Shown here one piece after another: positions 1 to 57,929 of a stretch of 58,928 nt of DNA. The notes under the pieces are model-generated. The model ran no database searches and had not been told where the DNA came from. It saw only the letters and a program-made list of their open reading frames with translations. A program made the translations under genes and the position numbers. The DNA is taken from the IMG/VR virus record IMGVR_UViG_3300025872_000063, positions 1 through 58,928 of that record. One strand, written 5' to 3'. The stretch comes from a virus. Taxonomy: Duplodnaviria; Caudoviricetes. How positions within the stretch are numbered: position 1 is the stretch's first letter; each line of letters opens with the position of its first letter.

Positions 1-3046
<3,046 letters not shown>

Positions 3047-11330: not shown

Positions 11331-11401
11331 GCGAGTAAGGTGTTACGGCAGCACTCCACTCTTCCAAAGTGGAAGCACGGGTTCGACTCCCGTTACTCGC
11401 T
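11331..11401 (+). tRNA. tRNA-Gly(TCC)
   Basis: Acceptor GCGAGTA/TACTCGC; anticodon arm CCACT-CTTCCAA-AGTGG; T arm ACGGG-TTCGACT-CCCGT. Confidence 0.9.
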
Positions 11402-11469
11402 CAGAGTTAAAGTCACTTTTTCAGCCGCAGTTATTGAAAGAACGCCGACGACTACAACGAGGAAGATCA

Positions 11470-25229: not shown

Positions 25230-25886
25230 ATGACTGAGCACTATAATGTAGCAATAGCGACGCCCGGAAGATCGTTTCACGCAGAATATGTCAAGAGCCT
25301 TGTCAATACCTGCAGAGAACTTTCAAGACTCGGAATCACGTATACGTTTCTCAACCGGTACAGTTCGTTCGTGGCTAGCGCACGGGAGATGACCGCGACT
25401 GACAGCGGTACGCACAGTTTTCACACAAATAAGATCGCCGAGGGACGGTTCACCTGCGACAAGATCTTTTGGATCGATTCTGACATCGACTGGCAGCCAA
25501 AGGATTTCTTGGAATTGTATTATTCGAACGAGGACATAATCTCGGGGCTCTATGCTTTGGACGCCGCTGGACTTGTCGCAGCAAATATAATAGATGAGAA
25601 CGGGCTGATGAAAAGTGTTGACTATAGATACTTCATCCTTGACGCTGACCCGGTCTCCGTTGGAGGAGTTGGATTTGGATTTGTCTGCGTCAAAGCCTCT
25701 GTTTGGGAAAGTATTCCGCAACCTTGGTTCTTGATTGTTCGTGCTCCTTTTGGCGAGAACAAGACCATGGTCAACGTTAGTGAAGACTACTCCTGGTGCG
25801 CTCGAGCACGGCACGCTGGATTTGATGTCAAGGTTCACCCACTCGTAAAAGTCAATCATCACAAAGAAGTAGTGTATAGAGTATGA
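25230..25886 (+). CDS. Glycosyltransferase-like protein (GT-A fold)
   Basis: IATPG, WIDSDI (DxD), GFGFV, SEDYSWC...GF.V.V.P.V...H.K. Confidence 0.75.
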   Translation: MTEHYNVAIATPGRSFHAEYVKSLVNTCRELSRLGITYTFLNRYSSFVASAREMTATDSGTHSFHTNKIAEGRFTCDKIFWIDSDIDWQPKDFLELYYSNEDIISGLYALDAAGLVAANIIDENGLMKSVDYRYFILDADPVSVGGVGFGFVCVKASVWESIPQPWFLIVRAPFGENKTMVNVSEDYSWCARARHAGFDVKVHPLVKVNHHKEVVYRV

Positions 25887-26099: not shown

Positions 26100-26171
26100 G
26101 CCCTCGTCGTCTACTGGTTAGGACGCGATTCTTATAAAGTCGCTAAGGTGGTTCAATTCCACCCGAGGGCA
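26100..26171 (+). tRNA. tRNA-Ile(TAT)
   Basis: Acceptor GCCCTCG/CGAGGGC; anticodon arm CGATT-CTTATAA-AGTCG; T arm GGTGG-TTCAATT-CCACC. Confidence 0.85.
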
Positions 26172-26178
26172 CTAACAC

Positions 26179-26251
26179 GCCTCGGTAGCTCAATGGATAG
26201 AGCGTCGGGTTTCTACCCCGCCGGTTGGGAGTTCGAGTCTCTCCCGAGGCA
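26179..26251 (+). tRNA. tRNA-Arg(TCT)
   Basis: Acceptor GCCTCGG/CCGAGGC; D arm GCTC..GAGC; anticodon loop TTTCTAC; T loop TTCGAGT. Confidence 0.88.
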
Positions 26252-26255
26252 CTTT

Positions 26256-26330
26256 GCCGGATTAGCTCAGTGGCAGAGCAACCGCCTTGTAAGCGGTTGG
26301 TCACAGGTTCGAATCCTGTATCCGGCTCCA
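26256..26330 (+). tRNA. tRNA-Thr(TGT)
   Basis: Acceptor GCCGGAT/ATCCGGC with encoded CCA; anticodon arm ACCGC-CTTGTAA-GCGGT. Confidence 0.93.
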
Positions 26331-40199: not shown

Positions 40200-40307
40200 G
40201 TGTCCCGTAGAAAGTTCAGGCCTGGAAGGGCGCCAGAATGCAGACGGGCCATCTTCGTCAAGTTCTGAGTAAGTTATAATGCACTAGTACGCAAGAAAGG
40301 ACAGCAG

Positions 40308-40475
40308 ATGAAGTGCAAATGCGCGATGTGCGGACGAGACAACTCCGCCAAACTGGGCAGGGCGTCGTACGCCCGTTCAGGGATCTACACCTCCGAGCAA
40401 AAGTCCAAGGGCGACATCAAGCGCATCGAACGTCGCCTCCGTCGTCGTCGTGAGAACTTCGACCTCTCTTTCTGA
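40308..40475 (+). CDS. Small basic Cys-containing protein
   Basis: MKCKCAMCG...RRLRRRR; stop inside the next element. Confidence 0.6.
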   Translation: MKCKCAMCGRDNSAKLGRASYARSGIYTSEQKSKGDIKRIERRLRRRRENFDLSF

Positions 40476-40493
40476 GAAAGGTATAATGACACC

Positions 40494-40655
40494 ATGATCA
40501 GCTACGAACACAAGGGGGGCGCATGGCTGCTTCCTCTCACTGGAACACGCGACGTCCCGACGTGCCAAGACTGCGAAGAGACCAATGGTCTCGAGTTCGT
40601 GTCCTGGATCGACGCCTACCTCTGCCCTGAATGCCTAGCTAACGAACTTGGCTGA
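40494..40655 (+). CDS. Small zinc-ribbon protein (leaderless)
   Basis: CQDC...CPEC. Confidence 0.6.
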   Translation: MISYEHKGGAWLLPLTGTRDVPTCQDCEETNGLEFVSWIDAYLCPECLANELG

Positions 40656-40711
40656 CCTCATTTGCTTTCTGAGCAAGTTATAATGATCTCACAACGACGA
40701 AGGGACAAGCA

Positions 40712-40867
40712 ATGAACACCATCACCGAGGGTCTGATCTTCAAGGCCCGCTGCACGATCGCAGAGATCGAAGACTGCTTCGATATGAACTCGGCGCTCGA
40801 GCTGATCGACAAGCTCTCCCGTCGCATCAATGAACTGATCGACGAGCTGGAGTCGATCAAGAACTGA
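40712..40867 (+). CDS. Small helical protein
   Basis: Cassette promoter and RBS. Confidence 0.6.
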   Translation: MNTITEGLIFKARCTIAEIEDCFDMNSALELIDKLSRRINELIDELESIKN

Positions 40868-40885
40868 GTAAGTTATAATGTACTC

Positions 40886-41170
40886 ACAACATCAACCGCA
40901 CGAAGAGCGCTTCGGCACCGACGTACGGTAGCAAGTCACAAGACGTTAGACGCAAGCCTCTGGCACGATAAGGCTCTCAGCATCCAAAGCGATACTGCTC
41001 TACGACGACCATGGCGTCGCACCAGTCCCTCCTCACGGATCAGATCCGTCCTCCTCTGTACGCATCCGCCACTCTAATCGTCTTACTCTGCTACCCGACT
41101 GCTCCCCGGCCAAGGAGCAGAACGCCGGGCGTTTCCGGAGACCAGCCGGAGCGTTCTTCATGTGGTTGAT
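40886..41170 (+). ncRNA. Rod-shaped ~285-nt ncRNA, copy 1 (possibly Ms1/6S-like)
   Basis: Own promoter; 26-nt terminal stem 40891-40916/41145-41170 (22 WC, 3 G-U, 1 mismatch); paralog at 43278-43555. Confidence 0.8.
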
Positions 41171-41216
41171 TCTGAGCAAGTTATAATGTACTTACCAACG
41201 AGGAAAGGACAAAGCA

Positions 41217-41384
41217 ATGCCGAGCAACTACCCCGACGGAATGCGCGAGTCGGACATCCCGGGCTGGTGGGACGTGGAGTGCCCGACCTGTGAGGAGGAG
41301 GGGTACACCGACGACTGCCCCACCTGCGAGGGAACTGGCAACATCGACAGTCGCAGCCGGTGGGAGCCGGAATACGACGACTGA
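41217..41384 (+). CDS. Small acidic zinc-ribbon protein
   Basis: CPTC...CPTCEGTG. Confidence 0.65.
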   Translation: MPSNYPDGMRESDIPGWWDVECPTCEEEGYTDDCPTCEGTGNIDSRSRWEPEYDD

Positions 41385-41467
41385 ACTCGGCGCCTCGAGC
41401 GCTGGCCGGCGCCTCGAGCGCTGGCCGGCGCCTCGAGCGCAAGAACTAAGAAAGGTATAATGAGACC

Positions 41468-41737
41468 ATGCTCAAGATCAACGTAACAACTTCCCGTCGA
41501 GATGGCGATTATTCCGATGTCTTCATCCAATATGCGGACGACGACAAGATTCACGCCGGCGCAATACGCAAGACGCTGACTGGCAAGTGGAATACCATCG
41601 TCGACGGAGAACTCTACACCGCTCGGACAAAGTCGGACGCCGTTCTCACGGTTTGCTATCTGACTGGACCGAAGTTCTTTTCTGGCGCAGTCTATAAGTA
41701 CGGTGCTTACACACTTGCACTTCCAAGTTCTGAGTAA
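41468..41737 (+). CDS. Hypothetical protein (leaderless)
   Basis: ATG 7 nt after TATAAT; stop inside the next element. Confidence 0.65.
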   Translation: MLKINVTTSRRDGDYSDVFIQYADDDKIHAGAIRKTLTGKWNTIVDGELYTARTKSDAVLTVCYLTGPKFFSGAVYKYGAYTLALPSSE

Positions 41738-41773
41738 GTTATAATGTACTCACCAACGAGGAAAGGACAAAGC

Positions 41774-41998
41774 ATGGACGAGATGATCGTGATCGACACG
41801 CCGGAGGGCATCGAACACTTCCGCCTCGCGGCGCTCATTGCGGCGCTTCGCATCGAAGTCAAGACTGGAATGGTCGGCCGTATGCCGACCCTGCCAGTCG
41901 CCAGGAGCTACGGCGTGCAGGCCAGGACCAAGAAGAAGGCACTCGAGGAGCTCGAGGGCATCTACATGGTCACCTACGGCAGGCCGTACGGATCGTGA
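41774..41998 (+). CDS. Hypothetical protein
   Basis: Cassette promoter and RBS. Confidence 0.7.
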   Translation: MDEMIVIDTPEGIEHFRLAALIAALRIEVKTGMVGRMPTLPVARSYGVQARTKKKALEELEGIYMVTYGRPYGS

Positions 41999-42106
41999 CC
42001 GCCACGGCGGGCCGGCGCAATGAATGCCGGCCCGCCAGGCGGCGCAATGCAGACGGGCCACTTCTGAGCAAGTTATAATGTACTTACAACGAGGAAAGGA
42101 CACACA

Positions 42107-42271
42107 ATGAAGACGAGCAACGAACTTCTCAAGTTGGTCAGGGAGAGCGTGGAGCTCGCGGACGAGCGCAAGAACGTCGGAACGCTTGGCCCGTGGGAGG
42201 CGATCGGTATTCTCAAGAGCACGGTCAACTTTCTCATCACGCACATCGAGCGTGATCAGACTTCTGAGTAA
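42107..42271 (+). CDS. Hypothetical protein
   Basis: Cassette promoter and RBS; stop inside the next element. Confidence 0.6.
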   Translation: MKTSNELLKLVRESVELADERKNVGTLGPWEAIGILKSTVNFLITHIERDQTSE

Positions 42272-42285
42272 GGTATAATGTATTC

Positions 42286-42441
42286 ATGGGAACGACAAAG
42301 AACAACTCGAGGACCAAGTGGGCATGGACAGACGCTGAGCGTCAGGCATTCGCGGATGGCGTCCGCGTCCGTGCACAGCGGATTCCAAACAAGAAGCGCA
42401 TCGCGTCACGGAACGCGTGCCGGCGTGGAGGCGGCGAATGA
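42286..42441 (+). CDS. Small basic protein (leaderless)
   Basis: MGTTKNN...IPNKKRIASRNACRR. Confidence 0.55.
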   Translation: MGTTKNNSRTKWAWTDAERQAFADGVRVRAQRIPNKKRIASRNACRRGGGE

Positions 42442-42500
42442 CCGGCCCGCTAAGCGCCGGCGCGCAGACGGGTCACTTCTAAGAAAGGTATAATGACGAC

Positions 42501-42662
42501 ATGAGCGAATACACCATCCAGGGAAACTACGGCTTCGGCTGGGAAGATCTGACGACCGAAGAAACTATGCCAGAGGCAAAGCAGCGACTCAGCGAGTACA
42601 ACGAGAACGAATCGAGCGTTCCCCATCGAATCAAAGTCAGCGTCAAACTGAGCAAGTTATAA
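42501..42662 (+). CDS. Hypothetical protein (leaderless)
   Basis: IQGNYGFGWEDL; stop is the TAA of the next TATAAT. Confidence 0.6.
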   Translation: MSEYTIQGNYGFGWEDLTTEETMPEAKQRLSEYNENESSVPHRIKVSVKLSKL

Positions 42663-42669
42663 TGACGAC

Positions 42670-42840
42670 ATGAACGACAACGACATCAAGATTCGCGCCC
42701 AAGAGATCGTCCAGACCTGCGAGATGGAGTACCCAGAAGCTGGTGACGAAGCCATCTACCAGATGGCCGTCGACATGAAGTTTCACTCTGGGTGGAGCGA
42801 AGACGACGTGAACGAGTTGCTCAGTGTCCTCGGATTCTGA
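42670..42840 (+). CDS. Acidic hypothetical protein (leaderless)
   Basis: Stop inside the next element. Confidence 0.6.
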   Translation: MNDNDIKIRAQEIVQTCEMEYPEAGDEAIYQMAVDMKFHSGWSEDDVNELLSVLGF

Positions 42841-42879
42841 GCAAGTTATAATGATCTCACAACGAGGAAGGGACAAGCA

Positions 42880-43065
42880 ATGACGTTTGATAACTGGATG
42901 GACAAGGTCGACGAGTTCATGGAGATCCTCTGCGGCCTGAACTCTGAGTGCATCGAAGACTACTGCTACCGCGATGAGTACGACGCCGGCGCCTCGCCGA
43001 AAGAGGTCGCACTGCGCGCTCTCAAGAACGCGAACTACGACACCACTGTCAACTACATTCGGTGA
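42880..43065 (+). CDS. Acidic hypothetical protein
   Basis: MTFDNWMDKVD...YRDEYDAG.SP. Confidence 0.7.
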   Translation: MTFDNWMDKVDEFMEILCGLNSECIEDYCYRDEYDAGASPKEVALRALKNANYDTTVNYIR

Positions 43066-43112
43066 AACTGAGTAAGTTATAATACAATTACACCACGGCG
43101 AAAGGACACCCG

Positions 43113-43259
43113 ATGAACGAGAACAACGAGCCCGACTTCCTTGATCACGGCTGGCAGAACTGCCCCGGCGGGGCGGAGGCCCACCAAGCGCACATGGAGA
43201 TGAACGGCGACTGCCCGTGGTGCGCGTCCTACGACAAGTCCAAGTGGCTCGATTTCTGA
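43113..43259 (+). CDS. Small Cys/His protein
   Basis: Cassette promoter and RBS; CPWC. Confidence 0.55.
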   Translation: MNENNEPDFLDHGWQNCPGGAEAHQAHMEMNGDCPWCASYDKSKWLDF

Positions 43260-43277
43260 GCTTGGTATAATACACTC

Positions 43278-43555
43278 ATCAACCGCACGAAGAGCGCTTC
43301 GGCGCCAACGCGGACGAACCCAAGATAAGGCTCTCTAGCAAGCCTCTGGCACGATAAGGCTCTCAGCATCCAAAGCGATACTGCTCTACGACGACCATGG
43401 CGTCGCACCAGTCCCTCCTCACGGATCAGATCCGTCCTCCTCTGTACGCATCCGCTACTTGAATCCGTCCTCTTGTACCGTCCACCAGTCCCCGGCCAGG
43501 GACTGAAGCGTCGGGGTTTCCGGAGACCAGCCGGAGCGTTCTTCATGTGGTTGAT
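43278..43555 (+). ncRNA. Rod-shaped ~278-nt ncRNA, copy 2 (possibly Ms1/6S-like)
   Basis: Same terminal stem (43278-43303/43530-43555); 118-nt core identical to copy 1; compensatory changes in the flanking helices. Confidence 0.8.
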
Positions 43556-43774
43556 TCTGAGCAAGTTATAATGTACTTACCAACGAGGAAAGGACAAAGC
43601 GATGGATGACGCGATCGAGGCCTGCTGGTTCTGCGGAGACGCCAACGTGCTCATGGTGATCGACGACTGGGAATACGGCGAGTTCGGGGTGTGCACCGAC
43701 TGCGCGGACGATCCCGGCCTGAGCTGAGGCCGGCGCTCGAGCCGGCTGGCCGGCGCTCGAGCCGGCTGGCCGGC
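43553..43774. repeat. 222-bp whole-cassette duplication, copy 1
   Basis: Identical to 44516-44737. Confidence 0.9.
43602..43727 (+). CDS. 41-aa acidic zinc-ribbon peptide, copy 1
   Basis: CWFC...CTDC. Confidence 0.65.
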   Translation: MDDAIEACWFCGDANVLMVIDDWEYGEFGVCTDCADDPGLS

Positions 43775-43834
43775 TGGCCGGCGCAAGTTCTGAGCAAGTT
43801 ATAATGTACTTACCAACGATGAAAGGACACAGCG

Positions 43835-43978
43835 ATGGCAAAGTACTCGACCCGGATGCACGAGGTGTACGACACGCGGTACTGCCTGGTGATCTACTGC
43901 GGTTCGCAGAGCGCCTGCAAGCGGTTCGTGATGAACTCGCCCCGCAAGTGGCTGGCGGTGCGCCCTGCGGGGCGCTGA
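43835..43978 (+). CDS. Small basic protein
   Basis: Cassette promoter and RBS. Confidence 0.55.
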   Translation: MAKYSTRMHEVYDTRYCLVIYCGSQSACKRFVMNSPRKWLAVRPAGR

Positions 43979-44052
43979 GCCGGCTGGCCGGCTGGCCGGC
44001 GCAAGTTCTGAGCAAGTTATAATGTACTTACCAACGAGGAAAGGACAAAGCG

Positions 44053-44271
44053 ATGGTCACGATCGAGCTCGATGTCGCGCACGATGAAATGCCGCTGGAG
44101 CAGGTGCTCCAGACGATTATGGACGAGGTGCCGTCCACCCAAGCCGTGCTGGTCGACGTCAATGGCCCCACGGGCTGGCCTGTGGTCAAGTTCACGATGG
44201 ACGAGAGCGCCCTCGAGCGCTTTGCTGAGGTGTATGGCGCCGACGTGGACGAGCTGCGCGACCTGCTCTGA
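44053..44271 (+). CDS. Acidic hypothetical protein
   Basis: NGPTGWPVV.F. Confidence 0.7.
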   Translation: MVTIELDVAHDEMPLEQVLQTIMDEVPSTQAVLVDVNGPTGWPVVKFTMDESALERFAEVYGADVDELRDLL

Positions 44272-44351
44272 GCCGGCGCTCGAGCCGGCTGGCCGGCTGA
44301 GCCGGCTGGCCGGCTGGCCGGCGCAAGTTCTGAGCAAGTTATAATGTACTC

Positions 44352-56525: not shown

Positions 56526-57929
56526 TTGTTTGAAAACATGAACGGGAGAACAATGCCACCAAACGATAGCGTTTCTTCAGTAGTTCTAGATCAGACAGAA
56601 ACTAAAACAAGGTCTCGAGTTGTAATTGATACATCTGTATTTATAGCTGATCCGTACTGCATATACGGTATAGACAGCGCTGAAATCGTTATACCACTTG
56701 TCGTAATCGAAGAACTTGACAGTCTAAAATCAAGAAATGACGACACTGGAAGATCGGCAAGATCAGCTCTACGACTGATAGAAGATATACGTACAGCAGC
56801 TGGAGGATCGTTATCACGATCAACAGCCATATCAGATGTACAGAATAGTTCAGTTCTAAGAATAGAAGTCAGTAAAATTGATAATTCAATATTGATAGAC
56901 CATGGACTTGATCAATATACTGCTGACAATAAGATCATCGCAACAGCAATTAATCAATCAAAATACGGATATACGTCGATTATTTCAAACGATGCTGCAT
57001 TACGGATAAAAGCTTCACATCTTGGAATACCTGCTAGGGAGCATCTTCCAGCTCGAGTAGACAGAGATAGAAAGAATCCAGGATGGACAACTATCGAGTT
57101 AGATAGTCTATCGATAGATAGACTACATTCAGACGGTATACTCAACGATTCAGAATTTTTAGACGATCTTCAACTGATAAATAATGAATTTGTTGTAGCA
57201 AAATCTGGAAATAAATCGGCTCTGGCGAGATATCAGTCAAACAATTTAATGCGTCTTTCTCATGTGGCACCGGACGCTTGGGGCCTCAGACCTCGTTCAA
57301 AAGAACAGCGATTTGCATTAGACCTATTGCTCGACCAATCTGTACAAGTTATCGCCCTCGACGGAAGAGCAGGCACCGGTAAAACAATTGTTGCGGTAGC
57401 AGCAGGACTCGAGCAGGTCGTCGAGAAAAAGCTATATGAACGTTTATCTATATATAGACCACTCGTTCCAATATCAAATTCTGATGTAGGCTTTCTTCCG
57501 GGAGATCTAAGCGAAAAACTAGATCCATGGATGTCTGCAATATATGACGCAATAGTAGCTCTAACAGACGGACAATCTAAAGTAGGGGCGCAGTCAATGA
57601 TTGATGAACTTCTTACCAGAGAAAAACTCACACTTGAAAGTGTAACATTTTTACGCGGTAGATCGCTTCATCGACAGTTTATTATTGTCGATGAAGCCCA
57701 GAACCTAGAACCAACTACTCTAAAAACTATACTTACACGAGTAGGTGAAGGTAGTAAAATAGTGTTTACTGGAGATACGACACAGATAGATGCTCCGTAT
57801 CTTGGAGAATCAAATAATGCATTAGCTGTTTTAATCAATGCTTTTGCAGATCAGGAATGTTTTGGCCATGTAATGTTGTCGACATGCGAACGCAGTGAAG
57901 TGGCGAAGCTTGCGGCAGAGCTACTCTAA
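56526..57929 (+). CDS. phoH: PhoH family ATPase with N-terminal PIN domain
   Basis: VIDTSV, EELD, DNKII, SND (PIN); GRAGTGKT, GFLPG, LRGRS, DEAQN, GD..QID. Confidence 0.9.
   Translation: MFENMNGRTMPPNDSVSSVVLDQTETKTRSRVVIDTSVFIADPYCIYGIDSAEIVIPLVVIEELDSLKSRNDDTGRSARSALRLIEDIRTAAGGSLSRSTAISDVQNSSVLRIEVSKIDNSILIDHGLDQYTADNKIIATAINQSKYGYTSIISNDAALRIKASHLGIPAREHLPARVDRDRKNPGWTTIELDSLSIDRLHSDGILNDSEFLDDLQLINNEFVVAKSGNKSALARYQSNNLMRLSHVAPDAWGLRPRSKEQRFALDLLLDQSVQVIALDGRAGTGKTIVAVAAGLEQVVEKKLYERLSIYRPLVPISNSDVGFLPGDLSEKLDPWMSAIYDAIVALTDGQSKVGAQSMIDELLTREKLTLESVTFLRGRSLHRQFIIVDEAQNLEPTTLKTILTRVGEGSKIVFTGDTTQIDAPYLGESNNALAVLINAFADQECFGHVMLSTCERSEVAKLAAELL

Follow-up and report, generated by a model that had tools for sequence, protein, structure and literature searches.

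Two genes for a new family of structured non-coding RNA in an uncultured freshwater phage

The DNA analysed here, referred to as the window, is the whole 58,928-nucleotide (nt) stretch of IMG/VR virus record IMGVR_UViG_3300025872_000063, a phage record that is ~44% complete. It contains two RNA genes, copy A (40886-41170) and copy B (43278-43555), both on the + strand and with predicted primary transcripts of 285 nt and 278 nt, respectively. As we show here, each of them encodes a stable, highly structured, non-coding phage RNA of a new family. A sequence-only reading of the window had called the two loci non-coding RNAs, and the call is strengthened by homologues in other phages, by the covariation of their paired positions and by metatranscriptome contigs from natural samples.

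A BLAST search within the record finds the element in exactly two places, with 86% identity over 281 nt. The repeat search resolves this likeness into a central block (40952-41079 and 43338-43465; 128 nt, 98% identity, the first 118 nt identical), the 3' parts (41105-41219 and 43490-43604; 115 nt, 89%) and the 5' ends (40890-40923 and 43277-43310; 34 nt, 94%). Both searches bear out the earlier description of two loci that share an identical 118-nt core, and the two CCTCCTC tracts reported there are present in the sequence. The loci had also been described as lacking an open reading frame (ORF), which holds in that none is common to the two copies and none is kept across the 26 homologues described below. 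The ORF at 41011-41169(+) of copy A has no counterpart of 30 or more amino acids in copy B, a 111-amino-acid minus-strand frame of copy B has no counterpart in copy A, and the longest frame free of stops is not the same one throughout the 26 homologues, all six frames occurring.

Membership of a wider family was established with R1, a covariance model for which three relatives from the contigs of other phages supplied the sequences and from which the window was excluded. R1 finds both window copies at full length (model positions 1-234 of 234), at 38.0 bits for copy A and 38.6 bits for copy B (expect value (E) ~1e-9), the next-best matches in the window having an E of 0.5 or worse. Each copy also contains at least one canonical module of the kind described below, its own promoter and a terminal helix formed from both ends. 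Relatives of the phage were gathered through its terminase (291 contigs, of which 80 were kept), and 50 of their records were searched. Searched by blastn with copy A, 5 of the 50 records yielded matches, each only 27 nt long, which were later shown to mark true homologues. Relative to the terminase these matches occupy the place that the RNA has in the window, ~13-14 kb upstream, and the loci that they mark carry a promoter and a terminal helix of wholly different sequence; the motifs GAUAAGGCUCU and AUCCGYCCUCCUCU, each present twice, are common to them. R1 members were found in 7 of the 50 terminase-related phage records, at 16 of 17 pattern loci in Joint Genome Institute (JGI) metagenomes and at further viral loci reached by pattern scans of IMG/VR. 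Alignment A6 holds 26 distinct homologues of 200-285 nt, all from uncultured freshwater phage or metagenome contigs; its E cut-off of 2e-8 leaves out reverse-strand echoes and a short variant (L129/L133, 25 bits), and identical copies were not added.

The reach of the family was bounded by several negative searches. Neither copy A (blastn) nor the 30-50 kb part of the window (megablast) matched any GenBank phage, nor did three other family members, and exact IMG/VR scans for a 26-nt piece of the core and a 22-nt promoter gave 0 matches. R1 found no copy in four nearly complete relatives (82-100% complete), and none is present in bases 1-46000 of phage DSL-LC01, the part searched. Loci collected with loose patterns are mostly chance, with 16 R1 matches over 32 sources, including two reverse-strand echoes; L114 is a true member, and L111-L113, L115-L126, L128, L131, L132 and L135 have no R1 match. 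Among the metagenome pattern loci, L148 has no R1 match and L138 only a partial one (12.8 bits). None of 60 bacterial loci with a tandem A motif (defined below) is a member, in a scan that would miss a cellular RNA with a single module. Among the bacterial genome contigs (L154-L213), the pattern TAAGGCTCTN{4,12}GATAAGGCTC matches many of Bacillaceae with the same 26-nt span, including five contigs of Bacillus coahuilensis and several of Neobacillus; these loci are not family members and thus represent some other repeated element.

Besides the window, at least seven contigs carry two copies. The copy pairs of five compared contigs are 51-64% identical, and in at least three of these a copy has its nearest relative in a different contig; several phages keep two old copies in each genome. 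The window copies are the most divergent members, with ~33-52% identity to the others by our reading of the alignment. As they are mutual nearest relatives and share the identical 118-nt block, their joint history suggests gene conversion or recent duplication.

The sequence-only reading had named covariation in homologues as the check on a non-coding RNA, and the 26 distinct homologues provide it. In A6, an alignment fitted to the model structure and hence with inflated pair counts, the paired share of cells is 91.8-92.3%, as compared with 65.0% for 500 shuffles and 40-45% once partners are slid; double-sided variation marks 68-69 of the 80-82 pairs. The score for covariation, 0.570 against 0.154, was reached in 0 of 500 shuffles, and none of five measures is reached by any shuffle. 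The terminal helix, P1, comprises 24 pairs in the family, 23 of which show double changes with up to six pair types. When 14 homologues, again excluding the window, were aligned by MAFFT without regard to structure, the consensus had 45 pairs, with compensation in 30; P1, the helix adjoining it and the two side hairpins are all part of this consensus. When each of the 26 homologues was folded alone the ends paired in every one (17-26 pairs), with a median z of -4.18. Within the helices there are 131 G-U cells against 46 A-C cells, an excess which shows that selection acts on the + strand RNA.

The minimum free energy (MFE) of the window copies is -106.9 kcal/mol for copy A (z -4.95) and -102.9 kcal/mol for copy B (z -3.23), with 0 of 200 shuffles as good. 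Both fold into a rod consisting of P1, further helices, two small hairpins off the 3' strand and an apical hairpin. In copy A, P1 pairs 40891-40916 with 41145-41170, and in copy B 43278-43303 with 43530-43555. The helix has 25 pairs, three of them G-U, and one C/A mismatch, and its sequence is the same in both copies, in agreement with the identical terminal stem described previously. The next promoter motif abuts the 3' end of each RNA, P1 running into 41171-41188 in copy A and being followed directly by 43556-43573 in copy B. The apical hairpin of copy A, CGACG-ACCAUGG-CGUCG (41003-41019), is present in both the MFE and the centroid structures. One of the 3'-side hairpins, supported by fold and alignment, reads CUGCUCC...GGAGCAG in copy A (41099-41120) and is compensated in copy B, where it reads CAGUCC...GGACUG (43486-43505); likewise, GGTAGCA/TGCTACC in one copy stands against GGACG/CGTCC in the other. 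The earlier observation that the diverged flanks keep their pairing is thus upheld. At the position of the 41099-41120 hairpin, relatives carry an NNN-GACG-N'N'N' hairpin (helix 11). The other 3'-side hairpin, UUCCGG-AGACCAG-CCGGAG, lies at 41133-41151 in copy A, with a U-rich tail and overlapping the top of the P1 3' strand, and at 43518-43536 in copy B; both were located by a terminator-hairpin search. As stand-alone evidence such terminator-like hairpins were rejected, since the three found against 2.7 expected are not significant.

The most conserved element is a bulged helix within the middle of the rod. Its 5' strand, the A motif, reads G-N-[UAA]-GGC-[UC]-U and pairs with a 3' strand, the B motif, of A-[UCC]-G-[Y]-CC-N'-C, leaving UAA as a three-base bulge, U, C or A as a bulge of one base, and a small UC/UCC pyrimidine loop. 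In the inner A motif 10 of 11 positions are invariant in all 26 homologues, as is CCG.CCUC in the inner B motif. The N/N' pair (columns 73-219) is AU in 18 sequences, CG in 3, UA in 2, GU in 1 and another combination in 1, and the pairs just inside the modules also covary (columns 103-185, with five pair types, and columns 83-208). The pairing register given by RNAalifold, in which A5 pairs with N', was rejected; it breaks in 5-8 sequences, and the shifted register fits the variants better. The outer A motif pairs with the outer B motif and the inner A with the inner B, such that the modules continue the rod, the middle of which consists of one to two canonical modules together with degenerate ones. 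The C-rich CCUCCUC tracts are mostly paired with the A motif, the neighbouring pair covaries and only part of the tract is invariant, some members reading CCUCUGCU, CCUCGCCU or CCACUUCU at this site. The covarying pairs inside the conserved centre speak against a free CCUCCUC tract or an open bubble there.

The canonical module of the family is GAUAAGGCUC paired with CCG.CCUC, and by our reading of the alignment each window copy has one such module flanked by degenerate ones. In copy A the motif search places the canonical A motif, GAUAAGGCUCU, at 40967-40977 and its B partner, AUCCGUCCUCCUCU, at 41044-41057, the register being set by covariation. Degenerate A-type motifs occur in its outer module (GCAAGCCUCU, 40952-40961) and inner module (GAUACUGCUCU, 40991-41001), as read from the alignment, and a degenerate B-type motif, GUCCCUCCUC, at 41025-41034 contains the first CCTCCTC tract. 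The canonical pair of copy B lies at 43353-43363 and 43430-43443. Further out, copy B alone has an additional canonical A motif (43324-43334) and, with two mismatches, an additional B motif (AUCCGUCCUCUUGU, 43463-43476), which are probably partners. At this position copy A has an ordinary helix; the number of modules differs between the two copies of one phage.

In natural samples an RNA of ~230 nt accumulates, which corresponds to the rod minus the greater part of P1. Fourteen public sequencing runs hold part of 40200-44200, and four of these are metatranscriptomes that contain a small share of its sequence words. Each of the four yields one contig on this 4001-nt stretch, and all four contigs, of 201-234 nt, fall inside the RNA loci: X12 (234 nt) covers 40916-41149 of copy A, and X10 (43304-43536), X9 (43305-43533) and X13 (43323-43523) cover copy B. 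They are 100% identical to the window, with no other letters and no gaps, and have neither joints nor loose ends. On the remaining ~3.4 kb of flanking genes in the same stretch the four runs have no metatranscriptome contig. The RNA loci make up ~14% of the stretch, and by our own arithmetic it is very unlikely that all four contigs would lie inside them by chance; carry-over of DNA would not be confined to the RNA loci. As the contigs are so confined, the ~230-nt RNA accumulates well above its neighbours. In both copies the contigs stop at the inner edge of P1. A circular RNA was considered and rejected, given that there are no joints or loose ends and that the contig ends agree between runs. 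Each metatranscriptome holds a single copy, copy A in X12 and copy B in X9, X10 and X13, a pattern that could reflect different phage strains, differential expression or assembly.

Each locus had been credited with its own promoter, and TATAAT is indeed present 7-8 nt upstream of both RNAs. The promoter motif TCTGAGYAAGKTATAATG has 30 matches in the window, all on the + strand between 30538 and 46233, with 0 expected. That of copy A (ACTGAGTAAGTTATAATG, 40863-40880, with the -10 TATAAT at 40874-40879) is one of the 30; that of copy B (43255-43272, TATAAT at 43266-43271) is a weaker version, placed in the repeat family at 63% to the reference copy. Among the 26 homologues a TAnnnT hexamer lies no more than 30 nt upstream in 18 (background 0.17), and TA[ATG]AAT in 15 (background 0.05), for which binomial tails overstate the significance as the sequences are related. 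Another hexamer of TAnnnT type is found within 30 nt past the 3' end in 19 of the 26, and is usually the promoter of the next small gene.

The RNA genes sit in an array of ORFs of ~50 amino acids, each with its own promoter motif and conserved leader. Most copies of TCTGAGYAAGKTATAATG precede this leader (..ACGAGGAAAGGAC..ATG), which is followed by an ORF of ~40-90 amino acids. The array looks like a dense early-gene regulon with one promoter per small gene, and we read the region that bears the RNAs as an early, host-takeover region. GC-rich tandem repeats of 19-20 nt (GCCGGCGCTCGAGC..GGCTGGCC type) stand behind several of the small genes (41382-41448, 43729-43776, 43967-43994 and 44272-44316) and may be terminator hairpins or a repeated intergenic element. 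In a group of relatives (L088, L089, L144 and L145) arginine-rich proteins of 39-52 amino acids (..GIRxGI(K/R)..RH(F/Y)xxW..) flank the RNA on both sides, and could be its RNA-binding partners there. For the family, a conserved neighbouring protein was considered and rejected on clustering of the flanking genes.

Elsewhere the record encodes a T4-type large terminase, a primase-polymerase/D5 helicase and a class II ribonucleotide reductase. Judged by the terminase, Actinomycetia phage DSL-LC01, itself assembled from a metagenome, is the named phage closest to it (85.5% identity), with phages of Microbacterium and Gordonia next. The host is most likely a freshwater actinobacterium, because the nearest terminases come from actinobacterial phages. 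Next to the terminase is an ORF for a PIN-PhoH fusion protein (56526-57929, +), collagen triple-helix repeats fill most of a 1015-amino-acid ORF (2-3046, -) that is open at the end of the record, and four transfer RNA (tRNA) genes, for Gly(tcc), Ile(tat), Arg(tct) and Thr(tgt), are located at 11331-11402 and 26100-26330.

The sequence-only reading had likened the two RNAs to Ms1 and 6S RNA, which is the part of it that is not supported. At gathering scores the Rfam 15 search of the window returned only four tRNAs, and at E≤10 the region 40700-43700 gave three chance-level matches, none of them Ms1 or 6S. These include lysM-Actino (43488-43643), rejected as chance at 12.8 bits against a cut-off of 153.8, and CcsR1 (13.4 bits, E 9.5), rejected since it lies on the minus strand at 41277-41368, outside the RNA. 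Over the whole record neither the Ms1 model (RF02566) nor the 6S model (RF00013) matched at E≤10; in 14 control genomes the former exceeded its cut-off in none, and so provides no positive control, and the latter in four. Four homologue loci had no Rfam match at E≤1. Ms1 binds the core of RNA polymerase. It is described as a very abundant RNA of ~300 nt that forms a hairpin, long and double-stranded, which carries two short hairpins near its ends, the middle being most conserved, and specifically a central single-stranded bubble that is needed for binding (PMC4191392). Like Ms1, the phage RNA is a rod (278-285 nt in the window, 200-268 nt in relatives) with a conserved middle, high abundance and likely actinobacterial hosts. 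Two short hairpins branch off its 3' strand by the closing helix (helices 11 and 12; 41099-41120 and 41133-41151) and may or may not correspond to those of Ms1. Unlike Ms1, it is encoded in a phage early region rather than near a chromosomal origin and does not match RF02566, and its centre appears, from covariation, to be a pair of bulged helices with small loops rather than one single-stranded bubble. Another report states that homologues of Ms1 beyond close mycobacterial relatives escape homology searches, the reach of the Rfam model being limited likewise (PMC9130861). The Rfam result therefore speaks against membership of the Ms1 family but not against a similar mode of action. In shape and abundance Ms1 and 6S are the nearest counterparts of the phage RNA; by the model match, the one feature that gave a decisive test, membership of the Ms1/6S group is not supported.

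6S RNA (RF00013) is also rod-shaped and abundant, and acts in trans by sequestering a protein, but the phage RNA lacks both a match to its model and, in the covariation-supported structure, a large central bubble of the kind by which 6S RNA, itself a template for product RNA, mimics an open promoter. The C-rich small RNAs (sRNAs) 6C (RF01066) and CcsR1 (RF02791) are ~80-100 nt long and display their tract in hairpin loops. The phage RNA resembles them in having CCUCC-type tracts twice or more; unlike in these sRNAs, the tract is inside a helix, only CCG.CCUC is invariant and there is no Rfam match within the RNA. Precursor stalks of ribosomal RNA (rRNA) and early RNAs of phage T7 are cut by RNase III. 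In common with these, the 5' and 3' flanks of the phage RNA form a long helix that the accumulating species seems to lack for the most part; unlike them, the contig ends are a weak hint of cleavage and show no 2-nt stagger. GOLLD, ROOL and HEARO are orphan structured RNAs borne by phages, and the present RNA is similarly phage-carried and found by comparative analysis, but it matches no Rfam 15 family. It is longer than the ~8,500 unnamed IMG/VR RNA candidates of 29-151 nt (PMC10690425), among which an unnamed fragment of it may figure. The listings and abstracts covered by a literature search contained nothing relevant on phage 6S- or Ms1-like RNA or on these motifs. We place the RNA as a new family among structured, trans-acting RNAs, a broad kind already known from phages and bacteria.

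With regard to function, we put at about one half the probability that the RNA serves as a trans-acting, protein-binding decoy or scaffold released from early transcripts. P1 would act as a processing stalk or terminator helix that frees the RNA from transcripts which otherwise enter the next gene, and the freed RNA would work in trans during early infection. A protein would be bound through the repeated modules, the RNA being either a decoy or the scaffold of an RNA-protein particle, with host RNA polymerase as one candidate partner among several. Protein binding is placed first because an invariant, paired, bulged and tandem module resembles the usual protein sites and is unlike the loop seeds of sRNAs. 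Several points weigh against this proposal. No partner was found, and there is no constant protein neighbour, the best flanking cluster being present at 7 of 27 loci in varying positions; in the window there is no homologue of the small arginine-rich proteins encoded beside the RNA in some relatives. The invariant and partly paired centre would also suit a tertiary fold, a pocket for a ligand or contacts between RNAs. The metatranscriptome contigs show neither strand, level nor true ends, and their ends at the edge of P1 could reflect processing, termination at the 41133-41151/43518-43536 hairpin or poor synthesis of complementary DNA through a 25-base-pair helix. The pair counts of A6 are inflated as stated above, and kinship among the members means that the shuffle test does not yield a probability. 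Finally, every member derives from an uncultured phage, and only likeness to DSL-LC01 marks the host as an actinobacterium.

It could be argued that the bound protein is the host transcription machinery, and that the RNA is a functional analogue of Ms1 or 6S which sequesters RNA polymerase core or holoenzyme during takeover. The Ms1-like shape (a rod of 200-285 nt whose middle is invariant and which bears two short side hairpins close to the closing helix), an abundance that makes it the sole part of the region assembled in four metatranscriptomes, and likely hosts in the actinobacteria, the group that uses Ms1, are all consistent with such a role, and relatives of Ms1 are known to be missed by homology searches (PMC9130861). 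However, neither RF02566 nor RF00013 matches at E≤10, and the pairs that covary inside the conserved middle speak against an open bubble. Moreover, the phage early promoters resemble host sigma-A promoters, and an RNA that removed host polymerase would therefore hit the phage as well, so that we regard this analogue as rather unlikely. An alternative that is also unlikely, if slightly less so, is a base-pairing riboregulator whose C-rich tracts pair with the ribosome-binding sites of host or phage messenger RNAs (mRNAs) and block or tune translation. CCUCCUC resembles the anti-Shine-Dalgarno end of 16S rRNA, and RNAs of the 6C, CcsR and RoxS type pair in this way. B motifs with CCUCC are present in most members, the helix of the module is short and interrupted and could open, and the phage leaders use GAAAGGA-type sites and not GGAGG, so a sponge directed at GGAGG could, by inference only, spare phage mRNAs. 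Against pairing of this kind, the invariant part is CCG.CCUC and not CCUCCUC, as the variants CCUCUGCU, CCUCGCCU and CCACUUCU illustrate, and the tract is paired with the A motif beside a covarying position, whereas known C-rich seeds are in loops. The window holds no complement of either motif, the sole minus-strand match (25294-25304, one mismatch) being at chance level, and the sole CcsR1 match, of 13.4 bits, is on the other strand and outside the RNA.

A cis-acting element, such as a processing site or insulator between early units, a terminator or antiterminator, or the primer RNA of a replication origin, would account for a locus between two promoters (with a TAnnnT hexamer no more than 30 nt past the 3' end in 19 of 26 homologues), for a P1 as long as an RNase III substrate, for the U-tract that follows P1 in two members (L142 and L216) and for the terminator-like hairpin of the window copies. 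The metatranscriptome contigs, however, cover only the RNA and stop before the downstream gene, invariant modules and a 200-nt covarying body exceed the needs of a terminator or cleavage site, and the G-U bias indicates selection on RNA and not on duplex DNA; a cis role is consequently judged distinctly unlikely. RNA-RNA tertiary assembly has been reported for some large orphan phage-borne RNAs, for example ROOL and GOLLD. It is very unlikely that the present RNA is similarly self-assembling, or catalytic, through tertiary contacts between invariant internal loops. Its invariant bulges and loops without a visible partner, its tandem modules and a family found only in phages would be in keeping with this, but ~230 nt of mostly simple helices is small for such assemblies, and outside the nested helices neither a pseudoknot nor long-range covariation came to light, no systematic pseudoknot search having been made. 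Lastly, the loci might have no RNA function and represent a duplicated remnant, a small mobile element with P1 as its inverted ends, or a small protein gene. The inverted-repeat ends, two copies per genome and varying place within the early region might be cited in its favour; this explanation is nevertheless close to refuted. Between phages the sequence of P1 changes completely as its pairing is kept, with G-U on one strand only; a transposase site would keep its sequence, so this turnover speaks against a mobile element. Reading frames are not conserved, and the RNA accumulates.

Phage non-coding RNAs for which strong covariation and natural accumulation are both documented are few, and almost none are known from phages of actinobacteria. 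This study places one among host-takeover genes, and since it is the sole part of its neighbourhood seen in four environmental RNA sets the RNA likely matters for infection. Model R1 can be used now for annotating freshwater viromes. The UAA bulge beside GGC/GCC pairs, together with the pyrimidine loop, is a compact and mutable recognition element that eases the hunt for a partner. In the most far-reaching version of the protein-binding proposal, which we offer as doubtful, the RNA would be the first phage-encoded counterpart of 6S and Ms1, its tandem modules capturing a central host machine (RNA polymerase core, Rho or the ribosome initiation apparatus) and serving the phage as a takeover weapon made of RNA in actinobacterial hosts. 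Should RNA polymerase or some other global factor prove to be the partner, then phages also use the 6S/Ms1 strategy; if it is otherwise, the family would represent a new RNA-protein or RNA-only device.

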